This document shows, one piece after another, positions 3,085 to 60,093 of a stretch of DNA of 64,000 nucleotides. The notes beneath the pieces were generated by a model, which worked only from the letters and a program-made list of their open reading frames with translations, had not been told where the DNA came from and searched no databases. Within the stretch, counting starts at the first letter, position 1; the number at the start of each line of letters is the position of its first letter. This DNA is from Candidatus Paceibacter sp. Lineage in GTDB: Bacteria > Patescibacteriota > Minisyncoccia > UBA6257 > 02-FULL-45-10c. Made by a program: the position numbers and the translations under genes. The stretch is from contig DYGE01000002.1 in the NCBI GenBank assembly GCA_020724845.1, positions 35,961 through 99,960 on the forward strand, written 5' to 3'.

Positions 3085-3820
3085 GATTATCGCCATCATT
3101 CCAACTTATAACGAAAATGATTCCATCGGACGCTTAATTGACGCGCTAGAGAGGGAGTTCGGAAAAATTCAAAATCACGATTTTGAGATTGTCGTGGTTG
3201 ATGCCAATTCTCCTGACGGGACGGCCGAGACTGTCAAGGAAAGAAAAAAGTTATATAAGAATATAGAGCTTATCGTTGAAAAGAAGAGGCGCGGATTGGG
3301 CTTGGCGTATATTGCCGGGATGCGGCGCGCGATTGGCCAGCTCGGAGCGGACGCTATTATTGAATTTGACGGCGATTGGCAGCATAACCCGGAAGATATC
3401 AAGCGATTAGTGGCAGAATTTGATAATGGTTACGATTACGTAATCGGATCGCGATACGTCTCCGGAGGAGGCGTGCCGGAGGAGTGGGGATGGCATAGGA
3501 AGTTATTAAGCAAATATGGCAGCCTGTTTATCCGCTGGGCGCTTCACCTCTCGGTTCATGACGCTACTTCCGGTTTCAAGCTCTCCAGGGTGGCTGGATT
3601 TGCTGAAAAAATGCCGTTAAGCGAAAAACAGATCTTGTCCAAGCGGCATGCCTATAAAATCCACCTGCTCTACGAAATGATAAAGCGGGGCGCTAAAGTT
3701 AAAGAGGTTCCTATTGTTTTTTCCGAGCGGCAAAGAGGCAGTTCCAAAAGTGCCGCGGAAGATATTTTTGAGTCACTGAAAGTAGTTTTTATCTTATGGA
3801 TAAGAAGCCTGAAAAATTAA
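3077..3820 (+). CDS. GT2 family glycosyltransferase, polyprenol-phosphate mannosyl/glucosyl-transferase (DPM1/GtrB-like)
   Basis: N-terminus IIPTYNENDSIGRLIDAL..VVVDANSPDGT is typical of dolichol-P/undecaprenol-P hexose synthases. Length 247 aa. Confidence 0.7.
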   Translation: MARIIAIIPTYNENDSIGRLIDALEREFGKIQNHDFEIVVVDANSPDGTAETVKERKKLYKNIELIVEKKRRGLGLAYIAGMRRAIGQLGADAIIEFDGDWQHNPEDIKRLVAEFDNGYDYVIGSRYVSGGGVPEEWGWHRKLLSKYGSLFIRWALHLSVHDATSGFKLSRVAGFAEKMPLSEKQILSKRHAYKIHLLYEMIKRGAKVKEVPIVFSERQRGSSKSAAEDIFESLKVVFILWIRSLKN

Positions 3821-4950
3821 AAATTTATTACATTGCTAATGCTAGAATGCCGACCGAAAAGGCCCACGGCATTCAGCTGGCAAAAATGTGCGAAGCTTTC
3901 GTGAAACAGGGTGTTGATTTGGAATTGATCCTGCCGCGAAAAATAAATCTGGAAAAAGACTCAATTGAAAGTTTCTACGAACTGCGATCGCCCTTAAAAG
4001 TGAAGAAGCTGCCGGTCCTGCATTTCGGAACTTCTTACTGGGCGGATTTTACCTTAAGCGCTTTAACTTTTTCGATTTCTTATTTTATCTATATGATTTT
4101 GGAGAAGCTAAAGGGGAGAAAGGGGGTTATCTATACGATAGATCTGGATTATTTTTCATTTTCTTTGATTCCACTGCTTGGTATGCCGTACTTTATGGAA
4201 ATTCACGGAGAGAAGAAAAATACTCTCGCTCATCGGCTGATGTTCCGTTCCGTTCGGGGCATTATTACCATCAACCGTTATATTAAGCGGCAGCTCATGG
4301 AAACATTTAGTATTCCTTCTGAAAAGATTATCGTTCACCCAAATGGGATTGACCTTGATTTGTTTTCCGGCGCTATTTCCCGCGATGAAGCCAGATTAAA
4401 ACTTGGCCTGAAAAAGGACGTTGCCATCGCGCTTTATACCGGCCAATTTTACGACTGGAAAGGGCTGGAAATCCTTGTTTCCCTTGCCAGCCGCCTTGAT
4501 GGCATTTATCTTTATGTGGTGGGAGGAACTCCGGAGGAATTCAAAAAGCTAACCGGCATCAACGAGATTCCTTCCAATATGGTTATAGCCGGCAGGGCGG
4601 AGTTTAAGGACATCCCCCTTTGGCTGGCCGCGAGCGATGTATTGGCGGTAATCGGAACCAAAAAAAACAACTATTCTTACCTGTATACCTCTCCAATGAA
4701 GCTTTTTGAGTATCTGGCGGCGAAGCGCCCGATTGTCGCCAGCGAAACCCCGTCTAATAAAGAGATTGTGTCCGAAAAGGAGGTATTATTTTATGAACCG
4801 GATAATGCCGATGATTTCGCGGAGAAGGTCCGGTTTGCGGCGAGGAATCGGGACGCAATGAGTTCCTATATAGATGCCGGCTTGCGAAAGGCCAAGGAAT
4901 TTTCATGGGAAAACAGGGCCAGGCGCATTATTGAATTTATCAATTTATGA
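3796..4950 (+). CDS. Glycosyltransferase family 1
   Basis: 384-aa GT-B-sized ORF; the C-terminal half has a GT1-like core (..LFEYLAAKRPIVASETPSNKEIV..). Confidence 0.6.
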   Translation: MDKKPEKLKIYYIANARMPTEKAHGIQLAKMCEAFVKQGVDLELILPRKINLEKDSIESFYELRSPLKVKKLPVLHFGTSYWADFTLSALTFSISYFIYMILEKLKGRKGVIYTIDLDYFSFSLIPLLGMPYFMEIHGEKKNTLAHRLMFRSVRGIITINRYIKRQLMETFSIPSEKIIVHPNGIDLDLFSGAISRDEARLKLGLKKDVAIALYTGQFYDWKGLEILVSLASRLDGIYLYVVGGTPEEFKKLTGINEIPSNMVIAGRAEFKDIPLWLAASDVLAVIGTKKNNYSYLYTSPMKLFEYLAAKRPIVASETPSNKEIVSEKEVLFYEPDNADDFAEKVRFAARNRDAMSSYIDAGLRKAKEFSWENRARRIIEFINL

Positions 4951-7769: not shown

Positions 7770-8783
7770 ATGGAACAACGGCCAAAAAAAGCGCTTATTA
7801 CCGGAGTTACTGGTCAGGACGGCTCTTACATGGCCGATCTTTTGTTATCTAAAGGATATGAAGTGCACGGTTTGGTAAGGCGATCCTCTACTTTCAATAC
7901 CGAGAGGATTGACCATCTTTATGGAGGAACGGTTCAGGAAGCAAAGGGCAGGTTTTTTATGCATTACGGCGACCTGACTGACACTAATTCTCTGATTCAG
8001 ATATTAAGCAAAGTTAATCCGGATGAAGTATATCATTTCGGGGCGCAGAGCCATGTCAGGATCAGCTTTGATATTCCGGAGTCAACAGCTCAAACCACCG
8101 GGATTTCAACTCTGAAAATTCTGGAGGCCTTGCGCATCGTTAACCCGAAAGCGAAATTCTATCAGGCGTCTTCCAGCGAGATGTTCGGAAAGATTCAAGA
8201 GAACCCGCAAACCGAGAAGACCCCCTTCTATCCGCGCAGCCCCTATGGGGTTTCTAAGGTGTTTGCTTATTGGATGGCGGTTAATTACCGCGAGGCTTAT
8301 GGCATGTTTGCCTGCAACGGCATTCTTTTCAATCATGAATCTCCGAGGCGCGGAGAGAATTTCGTCACCAGGAAAATAACTACCGGCTTAGCCAAGATTC
8401 TTGCCGGCAAGCAGAAAAAAATTTATTTGGGAAATCTTGACGCGAAAAGAGACTGGGGTTACGCGCCGGAGTATGTGGAGGCGGCTTGGCGCATGCTTCA
8501 GCAGGAGCGGCCGGATGATTACGTGGTTGCCACCGGCGAAACCCGCACGATTAAGGAGTTTGTCGAAGAGTCTTTCCGTTTCGCTGGAATTAATGACTGG
8601 GAAAATTATATTGAGATTGATCCTCGCTACTATCGGCCAACGGAGGTTGATGTGCTTATCGGCGATGCTTCCAAGGCCAAAGAAAAACTGGGCTGGGAGC
8701 CGAAGACTAAATTCAAAGATTTGGTGAAGATTATGGTCAAGGCGGATTGCGAAAAACACGGGGTTCAATTAAAAGAAGTATAA
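7770..8783 (+). CDS. gmd: GDP-mannose 4,6-dehydratase
   Basis: [45 protein letters not shown] is a near-canonical GMD N-terminus. Length 337 aa with a YxxxK SDR core. Confidence 0.92.
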
Positions 8784-8826
8784 AAATTTTTTGTAAACGA
8801 CGATAGGGTATATTTGTACTTAAGAG

Positions 8827-8966
8827 CGGGTAGATGTCCTCTGTGCGGCAACTACGGAGCGCCAGATTGCTTGGTTGTCCATCGGACAAATTTGGCGTGA
8901 GGCGTAGGCGGCGTCAATCGCAGGAATTGGCGAACGCCGGTGCCGGTAAGAGGATATCTGCCCGCT
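8827..8966 (+). repeat. Structured palindrome-bounded repeat, copy B (forward core)
   Basis: Outer arms gcgggtagatgtcctct / agaggatatctgcccgc pair with G-U wobbles. The core CTCTGTGCGGCAACT.ACGGA...GGTGCCGGTAAGAG is shared with the copies at 10201, 12697, 32378 and 59814. Confidence 0.85.
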
Positions 8967-10200: not shown

Positions 10201-10446
10201 GAAATCAGAAAGAGTATTTTCTTTAGACTCGGGCTGCGCGGTGGGGACAAAGTGTCATAACCAGAAAGTATCCTCTTACCGGCACCAGCGTTCGCTGATT
10301 CCTGCGATCAGCGCCGCTTACGTCTCATCCTGATTTTCGCAAGCGAACCGAGCAAATCAGGATTCCGTCAGTTGCCGCACAGAGGATACTTTCTGGTTAT
10401 GTTTATCAGGTGGAGGCGGTCTAAAGAAAATACTCTTTCTGATTTC
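10201..10446. repeat. Composite repeat, copy A: perfect 28-bp outer TIR, perfect 18-bp inner IR, and the conserved core in reverse orientation
   Basis: 10201-10228 gaaatcagaaagagtattttctttagac is the exact reverse complement of 10419-10446. The inner IR is aaccagaaagtatcctct (10259-10276) versus agaggatactttctggtt (10381-10398). The core between them is the reverse complement of the copy D/E core. Confidence 0.9.
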
Positions 10447-12696: not shown

Positions 12697-12906
12697 CACA
12701 GGAAAGCACCCTCTGTGCGGCAACTGACGGAATCCTGATTAGCTTGGATTCCGTAAGGAATAATCAGGATGAGTCGTAAGCGGAATTATCACCCCGTGTT
12801 GGAAGGTAGGCCGCTATGCTATAGCATAGCGGTCGTCGGAAACCTGAAGGTGTTCGAGATGGGGGTCGGGGTGAGAATCTGGGACGGTAAGAGGGTGCTT
12901 TCCTGT
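12697..12906 (+). repeat. Structured repeat, copy C: perfect 18-bp bounding IR, extra internal hairpin insertion
   Basis: cacaggaaagcaccctct (12697-12714) is the exact reverse complement of agagggtgctttcctgtg (12889-12906). The conserved 5' core is CTCTGTGCGGCAACTGACGGAATCCTGATT. The 3' part is replaced or expanded by a segment containing the perfect hairpin ccgctatgctatagcatagcgg. Confidence 0.85.
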
Positions 12907-12917
12907 GCAGCTAATAT

Positions 12918-14292
12918 GCCTAAAAAAATATTTCTAAACCTCTATTCAACCATGACCTTCCGAAACTTCGTCGTTTTTCCTGACGGCGTAGTTTCCAAAT
13001 TAGCCGACAATCCGGATATTAAACTGCATGTTTTGATACCTAAGGGCTCTAATTTCCGGGAGCTCTTGAGCCGTTATCCGTTTGGCAAAAAACTGGAAGT
13101 CATAGAAGTCAATACTAAAATGCCAAAGCTTAATCCGGCGCAAAAGCTTTTTTATTTTTTCTATTCCTACTTGATTTTTACCGGCACCACTCGTCTGCTT
13201 GCGACTTTCGGCGCTCGCGCTGACGCTCCTCCGGCCGGCGGCAACCGCTTTTTTGCCCCCCTTAAAAGCGCTATCGCCAATATTTTTGGCAGGTCTAAAT
13301 GGATTAAAACCTCATTCGTTCCTTGGGCGTACAAGAAGCTATTTTCCCGAAAAGAGCTGGCTGATATTTTTGACCGGTATCAGCCGGACTTTGTGTTCTT
13401 ATCCGGCATTGCCGCTTTTGAAGATGTTGAATTGCTTGCCGAGGCACAACGAAGGAAAATCAAGACTATGGGCATGCCAATGAATTGGGATCATTTAAAT
13501 AAATATTACATTCCGCTCCATCCGGACCGCCTATTGATCCAAAATCAGCCAATGAAAAAAGAAGCAGAGGAATACCATGCCTATAAGGAGAGCCAAATTC
13601 AAATGGTCGGCTTTCCCCAGTTTGATTTTTATATTACCGGAAAAGAACATCTTCGCCCGCGCGCTGAATTTATGAAAAAATACGGCTTATCGCCGAATTC
13701 CAAATTAATCCTTTTTATTTCCGGCAGCGTTTACGCTTCCGGCGAACAGGAAATTCTAAAGGAAATGCGCCAATGGGCCAAGGATGGTAAACTGGGGCAA
13801 GAAGTCGGTTTTATGGTTAGGCCCTATCCTAACAGAGCGGATATTGCCAAATACAAAGAATTGGAAAAGTTGCCGGAGATGAAATTTTTCTGGGAAGATA
13901 CCACGACTGATTTAGAGAATATTATAGAATTTATGAATATTCTTTATCATTCGGATATCGTTATATCAATATTTTCTACTACCGCGATTGAAGCGGCAAT
14001 TTTTGATAAGCCGACTATTACCCTTGGCTTTGACGGCCGGGAGAAAAAGCCGGAACACCAGTCGGTTGCCCGGTTGGAGAAGCTCTCCCACTTCAAGCAT
14101 GTTCTTGACACGGGCGGCGTCAGGGTAGCGCGCGGTTTTTCTGATTTATTGGAATTTATAGCAATGTACTTGGAATCTCCTGAAGAAGACAAAGAAAAGC
14201 GGGATTTTCTTTCCGAAAAGATGGCTTATAAAGTCGACGGCAAAGCGTCAGGGCGAGTGGCGGAGGCAATAGTTGCTTATCTTAATGAATAA
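12918..14292 (+). CDS. TagF-like (Glyphos_transf-like) GT-B transferase, paralog 1 of 4
   Basis: The C-terminus SDIVISIFSTTAIEAAIFDKPTITLGFDG is shared with the paralogs at 17665, 26290 and 30021. The ORF-track start at 12769 lies inside the repeat element, so the ATG at 12918 (MPKKIFLN) is preferred. Confidence 0.55.
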
Positions 14293-32377: not shown

Positions 32378-32523
32378 GAATACCAAAGCACCCTCTGTGC
32401 GGCAACTGACGGAATCCTGATTTGCTTGGTTCGCTTGCGAAAATCAGGATGAGACGTAAGCGGCGCTGATCGCAGGAATCAGCGAACGCTGGTGCCGGTA
32501 AGAGGGTGCTTTGGTGTTTATTC
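32378..32523 (+). repeat. Structured repeat, copy D (forward core)
   Basis: gaataccaaagcaccctct ... agagggtgctttggtgtttattc bounding IR. The core is identical to copy E and is the reverse complement of copy A's core. Confidence 0.9.
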
Positions 32524-35575: not shown

Positions 35576-36719
35576 TTCTCAAGAGATTTGGAAGAAAATC
35601 AGTTCGCCGGTCAGCGAAGGCGTTTTTATTATTGCCGAAATTGGAAAGAATTTTATCCAGACCCGGGATGAGCGGCCGGTTGAGGAATACTTGGAGAACG
35701 CCAAGAAATTGGTTGATGAGGCCGCGAAAGCGGGCGCGGACGCGGTTAAGTTTCAAACTCACAATGTTGAGGATGAACAGCTCAATATCAACGTCACCTC
35801 TCCGCACTTTAAGGGCAGCGACCGCTATAATTGGGTGGCTAGAAACACCGGGGCTACTCCAGTGGAAGGCTTCTGGAAGCCCCTGAAAGAGCATTGCGAA
35901 AAACGAGGGATTGTTTTCTTTTCCACGCCGATGAGCCGGGGATCGGCAAAAATTTTAAACGAACAAATTGGCGTTAGTCTTTGGAAAATCGGATCCGGAG
36001 ATATTTTAGATTTTGTGATGCTGGATTATCTTAGGAATACCGGCAAGCCGATTATTCTTTCTTCCGGCATGAGCACTCTGGAAGAGGTGGAGAAAACGGT
36101 AAAATTCCTGCGGGAGAAAAACAATCAGATTGTTCTTCTTCATTGTGTTTCAAAATATCCCTGCCCGCCTGAAGATTTGCATCTGCGCACCATTGATTTT
36201 TATAAAGAAAAATTTGACATGCCGATTGGTTTTTCAGACCATTCGATCGGCGTTGATTCGGCTTTGGTGGCGGTGGCAATGGGCGCCACGGTGATTGAAA
36301 AGCATTTCTCTCTTTCCCGTGACCTATGGGGTTCTGACCACAAAGTTTCGCTGACTCCCGAAGAGCTGGCCGATCTGGTGGCGGGCGTCCGGGAATTGGA
36401 AAATAATCCGCGAAAAAGGCAAGAATTGTTGAATAGCGATTTCGCGAAAAGAGGCATGGGCCAAAAAGAGAAGGTGCTTCAGGAGGGGGAGGCGGCTTTT
36501 CGTCCGCTGTTCAGGAAATCCCTGATGGCCGGCCAAGACATTTCTGCCGGGACGGTTCTTGCGGAGGAAATGATATATGCCATGCGTCCCCAGCAATACG
36601 CCGGCGGGTTGCCGTCGGAAAATTACGAATCCGTTCTTGGGAAAAAAACTAAGCAAGATTTAAAAAAATACGACCCGATTACTGAACTAACGCTTAGGAG
36701 AACAGAATACGAACTCTGA
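35562..36719 (+). CDS. neuB: Second NeuB-family nonulosonate synthase with SAF domain
   Basis: FIIAEIGKNFIQTRDERPVEEYLENAKKLVDEAAKAGADAVKFQTH, ..LLHCVSKYPCP.. and a SAF-like C-terminus; 385 aa. A paralog of 20800..21867. Confidence 0.85.
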   Translation: MAQDNSQEIWKKISSPVSEGVFIIAEIGKNFIQTRDERPVEEYLENAKKLVDEAAKAGADAVKFQTHNVEDEQLNINVTSPHFKGSDRYNWVARNTGATPVEGFWKPLKEHCEKRGIVFFSTPMSRGSAKILNEQIGVSLWKIGSGDILDFVMLDYLRNTGKPIILSSGMSTLEEVEKTVKFLREKNNQIVLLHCVSKYPCPPEDLHLRTIDFYKEKFDMPIGFSDHSIGVDSALVAVAMGATVIEKHFSLSRDLWGSDHKVSLTPEELADLVAGVRELENNPRKRQELLNSDFAKRGMGQKEKVLQEGEAAFRPLFRKSLMAGQDISAGTVLAEEMIYAMRPQQYAGGLPSENYESVLGKKTKQDLKKYDPITELTLRRTEYEL

Positions 36720-37025
36720 TTGAGTTTAGAAGCAAGAATTTGAGTTAAGTTTGCGAAGCGACGAGGAGATCGCGCCCATAGGCGCCTCTCCGAGAAGCGA
36801 CAAAGAAATTAACCAAATTCTTGCTTCCCTCCGGGTGAGTCAAAAAGACATCATTTTCTTCGTTAATCGTCGCTTATGTATCTAAAGATACACTACGCTC
36901 CTCTTGCCTTGAAACTGACATCTTTTTGACTCACTAAATCTAATCAAGGTTCGTATTCTGCTCTCCTAGTTACATTTGACCATTGGCGTAAGTTGTATAA
37001 AATGTAGTAATTACACACCATCATT

Positions 37026-44942: not shown

Positions 44943-44989
44943 GTCCGAAGATAGGACTTTCTTACAATCCTTAATTTTACTTAGCCTAA

Positions 44990-45035
44990 CCTATCCCCAC
45001 TTATTCCCGCGTACGCGGGAATAAGTGGGGATAGG
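44990..45035. repeat. 46-bp perfect palindrome (hairpin) downstream of trxB, member of a 2-copy palindrome family
   Basis: cctatccccacttattcccgcgtacgcgggaataagtggggatagg is exactly self-complementary. Its core is related to the palindrome at 45632. Confidence 0.85.
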
Positions 45036-45048
45036 AAAGGTCAATTAT

Positions 45049-45609
45049 ATGCGGCAAAAAATTGGAACAATTCAAAAGAAAATTTTACTGCTTTTACTTT
45101 TGATTCCGGCAACCGGCTTAGCTTATTCGCCTCGTCAGCGAGCAAAGATATTCCGAAAATTTGGAGAAGAATGGGATAAGATCAACGAGACCGCGCTTAG
45201 CCGAGCGATTAAAGGTTTATATGAAAACAGGATGATAGATTTTCAAGAACATAAAAGTGGAAAGATTAGGATTACTCTACTTAACGATGGGAAAAAGAAG
45301 GCGTTAGAATATGATTTGGAAAATTTAGCGTTGAAAAAACCTAAGCGCTGGGACGGAAAGTGGAGAATGATATTATTTGATATTCCTAATACCAAGAGTA
45401 AGGCGAGAGAAGCGATCCGCTATCATTTGAAGAGATTGGGTTTCTATCGATATCAGAAGAGCATATTCGTGCACCCTTACCCATGCAGGGACGAACTTGA
45501 TTTTGTGATTGAATTATACGGAATAAGGCTGCATGTGCGTTATATAGTCGCCGAGGAAATAGACAACGATATTCATCTTAGGAAAGTATTCAGAGCTTTA
45601 ATAGCTTAA
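45049..45609 (+). CDS. PaaX-family transcriptional regulator, short form
   Basis: N-terminal wHTH-like region and the PaaX-diagnostic ..RWDGKWRMILFDIP.. (compare E. coli PaaX AWDGKWLLLL). The ORF-track start at 45025 lies inside the palindrome, so the ATG at 45049 is preferred. Confidence 0.55.
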   Translation: MRQKIGTIQKKILLLLLLIPATGLAYSPRQRAKIFRKFGEEWDKINETALSRAIKGLYENRMIDFQEHKSGKIRITLLNDGKKKALEYDLENLALKKPKRWDGKWRMILFDIPNTKSKAREAIRYHLKRLGFYRYQKSIFVHPYPCRDELDFVIELYGIRLHVRYIVAEEIDNDIHLRKVFRALIA

Positions 45610-45631
45610 TTTAATGTTTATATCGAACAAA

Positions 45632-45681
45632 AAACATCCCTACCTATTCCTGCGTACGCAGGAATAGGTAGGGATGTTTTA
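45632..45681 (+). terminator. 50-bp perfect palindrome ending in a T-run; likely intrinsic terminator of the PaaX-like gene and second member of the palindrome family
   Basis: aaaacatccctacctattcctgcgtacgcaggaataggtagggatgtttt. It shares the core tattcc(c/t)gcgtacgc(g/a)ggaata with 44990..45035, with a compensatory c:g to t:a change. Confidence 0.6.
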
Positions 45682-59799: not shown

Positions 59800-59813
59800 G
59801 ATTTTGGCGTTAT

Positions 59814-60003
59814 AACCAGAAAGTATCCTCTGTGCGGCAACTGACGGAATCCTGATTTGCTTGGTTCGCTTGCGAAAATCAGGATGAGACGTAAGCGGCG
59901 CTGATCGCAGGAATCAGCGAACGCTGGTGCCGGTAAGAGGATACTTTCTGGTTATGTTTATCAGGTGGAGGCGGTCTGAAGAGATAGTATTCAGGGTATT
60001 TCT
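59814..60003 (+). repeat. Structured repeat, copy E (forward core, left outer arm missing)
   Basis: The inner IR aaccagaaagtatcctct / agaggatactttctggtt is the same as in copy A, but the core is in the opposite orientation. The right flank atgtttatcaggtggaggcggtct(g/a)aag is shared with copy A. Confidence 0.9.
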
Positions 60004-60093
60004 TAAATAGAAGCGAAAATCTTAACATCATTTGCTTTTTTCTTTTGAAAATGTTATTTTATTAACGAGACTGGACATTGAAAAGGAGGCAGG

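Follow-up and report, generated by a model that had tools for sequence, protein, structure and literature searches.

The question raised by this locus is whether the folded repeat that overlaps the annotated start of a TagF-like gene in Candidatus Paceibacter sp. belongs to that gene, regulates it, or came to lie there independently of it. The gene is found in a stretch of 64,000 nucleotides (nt) of contig DYGE01000002.1 (assembly GCA_020724845.1, positions 35,961 to 99,960 of the forward strand), which was analysed at its full length and is referred to here as the window; the repeat at the gene start is called copy C. Copy C is a domain-swap variant, partly degraded, of a new family of repeats of ~140 nt, and TagF, judged by comparison with its relatives, is translated from an ATG at 12916-12918, beyond the repeat, the annotated form of 507 amino acids (aa) being a gene-caller artefact of reading through the repeat. 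With roughly even confidence, we read the family as insertional, mobile-like (non-autonomous) structured repeats, and not as a TagF-specific regulator. Coordinates of all features are collected in Table 1.

The open reading frame (ORF) deposited for the gene as protein P0001 (12769..14292, 507 aa) does begin inside the repeat, as a first-pass annotation of the sequence had noticed, at an ATG within the conserved 'GGAUGAG' of the repeat arm P2. That annotation ascribed the first ~50 codons to the conserved core of the repeat; 49 codons do lie in the element region, but most of them come from an insert specific to copy C and from the 3' arm of the closing helix P1, with little contribution from the core. 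In copies D and E, the AUG of GGAUGAG leads to a stop after six codons (MRRKRR*), and the frame from 12769 is held open only by the insert of copy C. The in-frame ATG opening MPKKIFLN that had been pointed out downstream is present 49 codons past 12769, although 12918, the position given for it, is its last base. When the annotated 507-aa protein was compared with 92 database homologues (E <= 1e-20), query residues 1-43 were aligned by none of them, every alignment beginning at residue 44 or later; for 52 of the 92, the alignment starts at query residue 52, and on the subject side most of the 92 start at residues 1-9. The closest homologue, P0002 of Candidatus Harrisonbacteria (67% identity), has the N-terminus MKKTLFFSAYSTMGFRNF, compared with MPKKIFLNLYSTMTFRNF here. 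Three paralogues in the window (17665, 26290 and 30021), with the N-termini MQSKPKTIFISSFHP, MKTIFITSFHP and MTKTIFLTIFEG (alignment bears out the forms given earlier), align from M50 of the annotated protein. Since none of these TagF/Glyphos_transf relatives, neither the 92 homologues nor the three paralogues, has the 49-residue extension, the start at 12769 is an artefact, as had been suspected. No Shine-Dalgarno sequence precedes 12916, which is normal here, because most genes of the window have none.

The consensus fold of the repeat was derived by RNAalifold and by pair counting, which agree. Its base is a long near-perfect helix, P1, of 13-20 bp, the sequence of which is different in every copy. 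Inside P1 are a conserved 3x3 internal loop (GUG / RYA) and then a 5-bp helix, P1b (CGGCA/UGCCG), which opens on a three-way junction with the arms P2 and P3. P2 is made up of an internal loop with GA on both strands, the helix P2a, a conserved GYUYGGU and the small hairpin P2b. Two helical segments make up P3, together with a loop that is CGCWGGA in the majority of copies. In the first alignments some 50 positions did not vary, among them several that are unpaired. Among nine copies from three genomes, 98.2% of pair cells are standard and 30 of the 48 pairs have changed on both sides; none of 500 shuffles reaches the values observed, and slid registers are 31-44% paired. An otherwise invariant CUCU/AGAG is replaced in copy G by UUCC/GGAA with the pairing kept. 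G-U cells outnumber A-C cells (15 against 4), and R1, the covariance model of the repeat, scores 111-154 bits on the element strand against 27-38 bits on the opposite strand; the two strand asymmetries together mean that selection is on the single-stranded fold of one strand, with fixed polarity, most simply that of an RNA.

A version of R1 built without copy C matches copy C with 71 bits (E = 2e-15), placing it in the family, and the whole copy of 211 nt folds at -101.4 kcal/mol (z = -8.3). Its closing stem shows the perfect 18-nt pairing seen earlier, with the 3' arm ending at 12907 and not at 12906. The first-pass annotation had further described helix 3 as replaced by a longer segment holding a perfect 22-nt hairpin, with the 5' core and the 3' end of the repeat kept. 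Both replacement and hairpin were found as described. The P3 arm, which takes up 29 nt in copy E, is represented in copy C by a branched domain of 95 nt (12784-12878) that is matched nowhere else in the window and in none of the loci retrieved, and that on its own forms a closed, branched fold of -44.1 kcal/mol (z = -4.3). The palindrome CCGCTATGCTATAGCATAGCGG at 12811-12832 is unique in the window (0 of 100 shuffles matched, with up to three mismatches allowed) and has no match among viral contigs. The statement about the remainder is true in part: the 5' core, starting CUCUGUGCGGCAACUGACGGA, and the 3' end, GGUAAGAG, are both retained, but the 3' strand of P1b is GGACG instead of UGCCG, leaving three of five pairs (a G22-A mismatch, with the U lost). 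In alignment, the core at 12715..12783 is 88% identical to that of copy E and 86% identical to that of copy G, which belongs to another species. P2 is undamaged; compensatory differences distinguish its small hairpin from that of copy E, and this hairpin is similar to the one of copy G. As a single case accompanied by damage to P1b, the P3 swap may represent tolerated modularity or, equally, decay.

Copies were identified by a direct-repeat search and with R1, giving five in the window (A to E) and no further credible R1 matches, even with filters off. Copy F lies just past the end of the window on an overlapping contig of the same organism, between a transketolase C-terminal gene and a Peptidase_M50 gene; it has a 26-bp perfect outer helix, and its contig carries a run of N within the P2b hairpin. 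Another Patescibacteria genome holds two copies, L001_1 (locus L001, which L025 also covers) and G (L025 only), and one more, the L010 copy, is on a Hainich groundwater contig. In a scan of a genome collection, one of four loci was real; of seven loci from a metagenome scan, one is a clear and one a probable truncated member, the others being chance matches in coding regions, and scans of viral collections gave no real match to the repeat. On the minus strand at one contig end (L005:1-88) is a probable more divergent member, with CCCTCTGTGCGGCAACTACGGA followed by a longer P2-like hairpin that is cut by the contig end. Sequences fall into three subfamilies, each common to more than one genome: alpha (B, C, D, E and G), beta (F and L001_1) and gamma (A and the L010 copy). 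Core identity among B, D and E is 99-100%, with no difference between D and E, although their flanks are unrelated. The whole window has no match in Rfam 15 at the gathering threshold, and searches of copies E, C and long-form B at E <= 10 returned just chance fragments of C/D-box RNAs (8-12 bits); ARAGORN finds neither tRNA nor tmRNA in the window, and no description of the element was found in the literature by word or by sequence string. This family of ~140-nt folded repeats is an uncatalogued one, and its hosts are a few Parcubacteria of groundwater, relatives of Candidatus Harrisonbacteria.

Copies B, F and G are of a long form, in which there is a perfect or near-perfect outer helix of 26-28 bp, different in each copy, together with two conserved C-rich linkers (5' CGCCUCCAYCU-AUAAA and 3' (U)CCCACCGC-CAGCCCGA). 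In copy B, the outer inverted repeat is 28 bp long and perfect (10201-10228 / 10419-10446, inverted repeats I3 and I4), with the linkers inside it. The linkers are conserved between two species despite the divergence of the helices. On the 3' side of copy E is the reverse complement of the 5' linker and flank common to B and F, that is, the core is flipped relative to its flank, and P1 types and core types form a mosaic among the copies that fits such exchange within an arm. The exchange is explained more simply than by an inversion: because P1 is palindromic, so that plus and minus copies share arms in direct orientation, ordinary recombination or gene conversion within a P1 arm can swap the flanks. 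A mini-ORF runs on the plus strand from an ATG at the end of the P1 3' arm (MFIRWRRS in B and E, 10401-10446 and 59953-60008; MFIGWRRYQK in F, L023 ~4100-4160) through a stretch that contains a strong Shine-Dalgarno-like GGUGGAGG; MFIRWRRS is not conserved in copy G, and the frame is probably fortuitous.

Comparison with relatives shows the junctions without the element. In L019, L020 and L021, syntenic loci of two relatives, the genes for the epimerase, DegT, GT4, RmlD (minus strand) and TagF abut or overlap, with the exceptions of a 21-nt gap in L020 and L021 and an RmlD-TagF spacer of 69-123 nt, and R1 detects no element in 53 kb of this sequence. The same junctions in the window have gaps of 202, 281 and 326 nt, containing A, B and C. 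Upstream of copy C, the conserved divergent block of promoters, with TTGAAA-17-TATAGT on the minus strand for RmlD, has been retained. Similarly, L001_1 occupies a 396-nt gap between mutM and holA in L025, a junction that in seven relatives is 7-106 nt long or has overlapping genes and is element-free, with no R1 match in ~120 kb. Copies occur in both orientations: B, F, G and L001_1 run antisense to the genes on both sides, the L010 copy has convergent genes on either side and an adjoining terminator, and A, C, D and E lie in sense orientation ahead of genes that are unrelated (DegT, TagF, epimerase and histidine phosphatase, respectively), with P1 ending 20 nt (A), 8 nt (C), 141 nt (D) and 138 nt (E) before the ATG. 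The repeats fragment assemblies of this genome. A 164,681-bp JGI contig of the same organism ends within copy E, and Logan unitigs begin at the end of copy E and stop 18 nt short of copy B; the breaks fall at window 59880 and 59948 for copy E and at 10238 for copy B.

The family is multi-copy, non-coding and polymorphic for insertion, as miniature inverted-repeat transposable elements (MITEs) are, and on the insertional reading the element would have entered the interval that separates the TagF start codon from the divergent promoter block of RmlD and TagF. Since copy C lies between that conserved block and the ATG, it should be in the 5' untranslated region of TagF and be transcribed as part of it, and other copies would likewise be co-transcribed with their host genes. 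The perfect basal duplex, joined in the long form by the outer duplex of 26-28 bp, would make the repeat an autonomous folding unit and a likely substrate of RNase III, a role that is plausible by analogy with Correia elements and rRNA intervening sequences; processing there would uncouple the flanking cistrons. The conserved core would be the binding or active site of a putative trans factor required for spread or function. Several points weigh against this reading. The window proteins scanned contain no transposase, recombinase or reverse transcriptase domain, and the copies have neither the usual terminal inverted repeats nor target-site duplications, so that no mechanism of mobility can be named. 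Scans with consensus promoters gave no consistent promoter in the copies. Conserved unpaired nucleotides and subfamilies kept across species also fit an RNA of benefit to the host. The alignment behind the pair counts had been fitted to the structure of the model, and, with about ten copies from only three genomes and B, D and E nearly identical, the counts make the independent evidence look stronger than it is.

The alternative that survives best is that the copies are an independent family of small-RNA genes, trans-acting regulators or protein-binding RNAs that have been duplicated within this genome and are each transcribed from their own strand; we consider this rather unlikely. It would explain the invariant and partly unpaired positions and the strand-specific fold, and it agrees with the orientation of B, F, G and L001_1, which, being antisense to their neighbours, cannot be leaders. 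In the long form, the single-stranded C-rich linkers GCCUCCACC and UCCCCACC would serve as seeds for G-rich targets, which would be in keeping with their conservation across two species next to diverged helices. A sigma-70-like promoter (10/12) ends ~14 nt upstream of the outer helix of B, on the strand of B, and a run of U follows P1 in L001_1, but no promoter or terminator recurs consistently at the other copies. Few obvious targets would be available to seeds of anti-Shine-Dalgarno type, given that most genes have no Shine-Dalgarno sequence. Absence from ~200 kb of syntenic sequence of relatives is unlike a housekeeping RNA, and near-identical copies at unrelated sites also speak against such a gene family.

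The first-pass annotation took the element for a 5' leader, and by its position between promoter block and ATG copy C is one; a dedicated cis-regulatory RNA with variable stems found no support. In its general form, this explanation has a riboswitch-like leader controlling sugar or glycan genes, with P1 as the switching helix. Copies A, C, D and E, all in sense orientation, do precede genes for the metabolism of sugars or glycopolymers, aptamers typically combine a conserved junction with peripheral stems that vary, and in C, P1 is so close to the ATG that the helix would occlude the initiation region. A cis-regulatory leader is expected with one gene class and in one orientation, and here 4 of 10 copies are antisense to both neighbours or between convergent genes, the genes downstream are unrelated to one another, and orthologous genes of relatives have no element. 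A dedicated cis-regulator is not supported because of these antisense copies, the unrelated flanking genes and the absence of A, B and C from the syntenic junctions. The distance to the ATG ranges from 8 to 141 nt, no consistent terminator is found near the copies, and neither an alternative pairing nor a clear expression platform was found. We regard a regulatory leader as improbable.

A more speculative reading, to which we give a slim chance, is that bacteria of the candidate phyla radiation have in this family a new class of mobile structured RNA, which spreads without a conventional transposase and has its loop and junction as active or recognition site. Such an RNA would be a self-processing ribozyme or would act as partner to a protein that has so far escaped recognition. 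Slimmer still are the prospects of the specific proposal that the repeat is a new self-processing (ribozyme-type) or RNA-mobilised element, with internal loop and junction forming an active site and the variable helices acting as scaffolds. The repeat has many copies, a patchy distribution, either orientation, strict junction and loop nucleotides, and covarying stems, a pattern known from the hammerhead and twister ribozymes scattered among bacteria, and spread of the repeat without a visible signature of a DNA transposase would also be accommodated. On the other hand, none of the ribozyme families in Rfam resembles it at E <= 10, no reverse transcriptase is seen nearby, and self-cleavage is not something that can be predicted from sequence.

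Least of all do we expect a DNA inverton, in which the P1 arms would be recombination sites and a site-specific recombinase would flip the core to switch glycan genes by phase variation. Two features are suggestive of one: the core of E is flipped with respect to the conserved B/F flank, and perfect inverted repeats of 18-20 bp lie within a surface-glycan cluster. But an inverton has no need of internal helices that covary with a G-U strand bias, there is no promoter-like site inside the cores, and the window proteins that were scanned have no recombinase domain. In addition, the mutM-holA locus of L025 has the minus orientation in each of six independent assemblies, and recombination within palindromic arms explains the flank exchange more simply.

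Several known systems resemble the insertional repeat in part. ERIC sequences are ~130-nt repeats that occupy transcribed intergenic regions, occur in both orientations and, among related species, may be there or missing at orthologous sites; their stems stay paired while evolving, and longer variants arise by internal insertion, comparable to copy C. They have no sequence similarity to the present family and are simple imperfect palindromes, whereas this element has a non-palindromic core with a three-way junction, conserved unpaired nucleotides, a strand bias and a parcubacterial host. The Correia elements (NEMIS) of Neisseria and MITEs are also small, non-coding, multi-copy and adjacent to genes, would share co-transcription with this element, have terminal inverted sequences that form a long duplex, and break assemblies at their copies. 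In Neisseria the Correia terminal duplex is cut by RNase III. Correia elements differ in having conserved 26-bp terminal repeats and a TA target duplication, while the outer stem of this element varies by compensatory changes, with only an inner imperfect repeat of 13 nt conserved, and no parent insertion sequence is known for it. EAR (eps-associated RNA) and riboswitch leaders are, like this family, covarying RNAs with a conserved junction in or upstream of glycan operons (copies A-D); unlike them, this element is not tied to one gene class or orientation, is absent from orthologous operons and has no Rfam match. Finally, the RNase III-excised intervening sequences of 23S rRNA, similar by analogy only, are sporadic insertions with a long near-perfect closing helix, which lets the host transcript tolerate the insertion. 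This element is found in intergenic mRNA regions and not in rRNA.

Other candidate classes were tried and set aside. A classical MITE does not fit outer stems that differ between copies and flanks that, in all copies, are without direct duplication. For integron attC sites, the outer ends are the variable part here, CGGCAAC and GTAAGAG do not fit R'' RYYYAAC and R' GTTRRRY, and orientations are mixed. Type I toxin-antitoxin loci were rejected because there are only short non-conserved peptides (MRRKRR* in D and E), with none on the opposite strand of B, F and G. The internal loops do not appear to fit the sequences of a K-turn, loop E or T-loop, GGA motifs of CsrA type are limited to a conserved GGA in the P3 loop, and the likeness of GGUGCCGGUAAGAG to a segment of RNase P is a string similarity without support at the level of the model.

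Table 1. Positions of the repeat copies, the parts of copy C and the TagF-like gene (window coordinates unless a locus is given).
Feature	Position	Strand	Description
Copy C, P1 5' arm to P1 3' arm	12697..12907	+	211 nt; R1 match and fold
P1 5' arm of copy C	12697..12714	+	CACAGGAAAGCACCCTCT; 18 nt, 100% complementary to 12890-12907 (inverted repeat I9)
Conserved 5' core of copy C	12715..12783	+	loop strand GUG, P1b 5' strand CGGCA, junction and whole P2 arm
Copy-specific branched domain	12784..12878	+	95 nt replacing the 29-nt P3 arm; unmatched elsewhere, folds alone
Perfect palindrome	12811..12832	+	CCGCTATGCTATAGCATAGCGG; 22 nt, 9-bp stem, UAUA loop; within the copy-specific domain
Degraded 3' core of copy C	12879..12889	+	CUGG-GACG-GUA against consensus CUGGUGCCG-GUA (alignment)
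P1 3' arm of copy C	12890..12907	+	AGAGGGTGCTTTCCTGTG; 18 nt; real TagF start codon 8 nt further on
Spurious N-terminal extension of the 507-aa ORF	12769..12915	+	49 codons; judged from homologues and paralogues
TagF-like (Glyphos_transf) gene, corrected start	12916..14292	+	458 aa, MPKKIFLNLYSTMTFRNF; Pfam PF04464
Copy A (subfamily gamma)	8826..8965	+	R1 144 bits; fold z = -7.6; 20 nt upstream of DegT aminotransferase ATG
Copy B, long form	10201..10446	-	P1-bounded core 10256-10401; R1 153 bits on minus strand, 35 on plus
Copy D	32379..32518	+	R1 150 bits; 141 nt upstream of UDP-GlcNAc 2-epimerase gene
Copy E	59812..59955	+	R1 154 bits; fold z = -10.1; between rpiB and histidine-phosphatase gene
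Copy F, long form	L023:4158-4302	-	~37-181 nt past the window end; same organism, overlapping contig

Elsewhere in the window there are other structured sequences. Between a NeuB-family gene and a UDP-glucose dehydrogenase-like gene is a second, unrelated large structured intergenic region (36695-36968), with 35-nt outer inverted repeats that are 83% complementary and, nested inside them, two hairpins at 36729-36742/36814-36827 and 36835-36858/36911-36934; R1 has no match to it. An ORF with a PaaX_M/Cas2-like domain (45025..45609) is flanked by related long palindromes at 44978-45047 and 45631-45680, the latter being perfect (25+25 nt, CCTATTCCTGCGT/ACGCAGGAATAGG). These palindromes are probably operator sites of that regulator, and the related loci L032 and L037 have PaaX_M genes too. 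The element-bearing genome of L025 has a small GIY-YIG nuclease gene, one with a NYN domain and one of 23S_rRNA_IVP/bAvd-like type (L025:2206-2490, 3264-3737 and 8307-8660), domains that are missing from the called-gene lists of most syntenic element-free relatives. Positions 1-43000 of the window are dominated by a very large surface-glycan cluster, with four TagF-like paralogues, at least nine GT4/GT2 glycosyltransferases, two NeuB-family synthases with cytidylyltransferases, a Wzy-like ligase with TPR repeats, two flippases and an initiating sugar transferase; pentose-phosphate and glycolytic genes are also present in the window.

For the databases, the consequence is that a deposited TagF-like protein of 507 aa carries 49 residues translated from a repeat. 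To our knowledge, few repeats or small RNAs are known from reduced-genome bacteria of this kind, and this family stands out for its very clean covariation, its conserved unpaired nucleotides, its subfamilies shared across species and its gain at junctions that are tightly packed or overlapping. If the basal duplex is processed, insertions of the repeat would rewire polycistronic expression of the large surface-glycan cluster.

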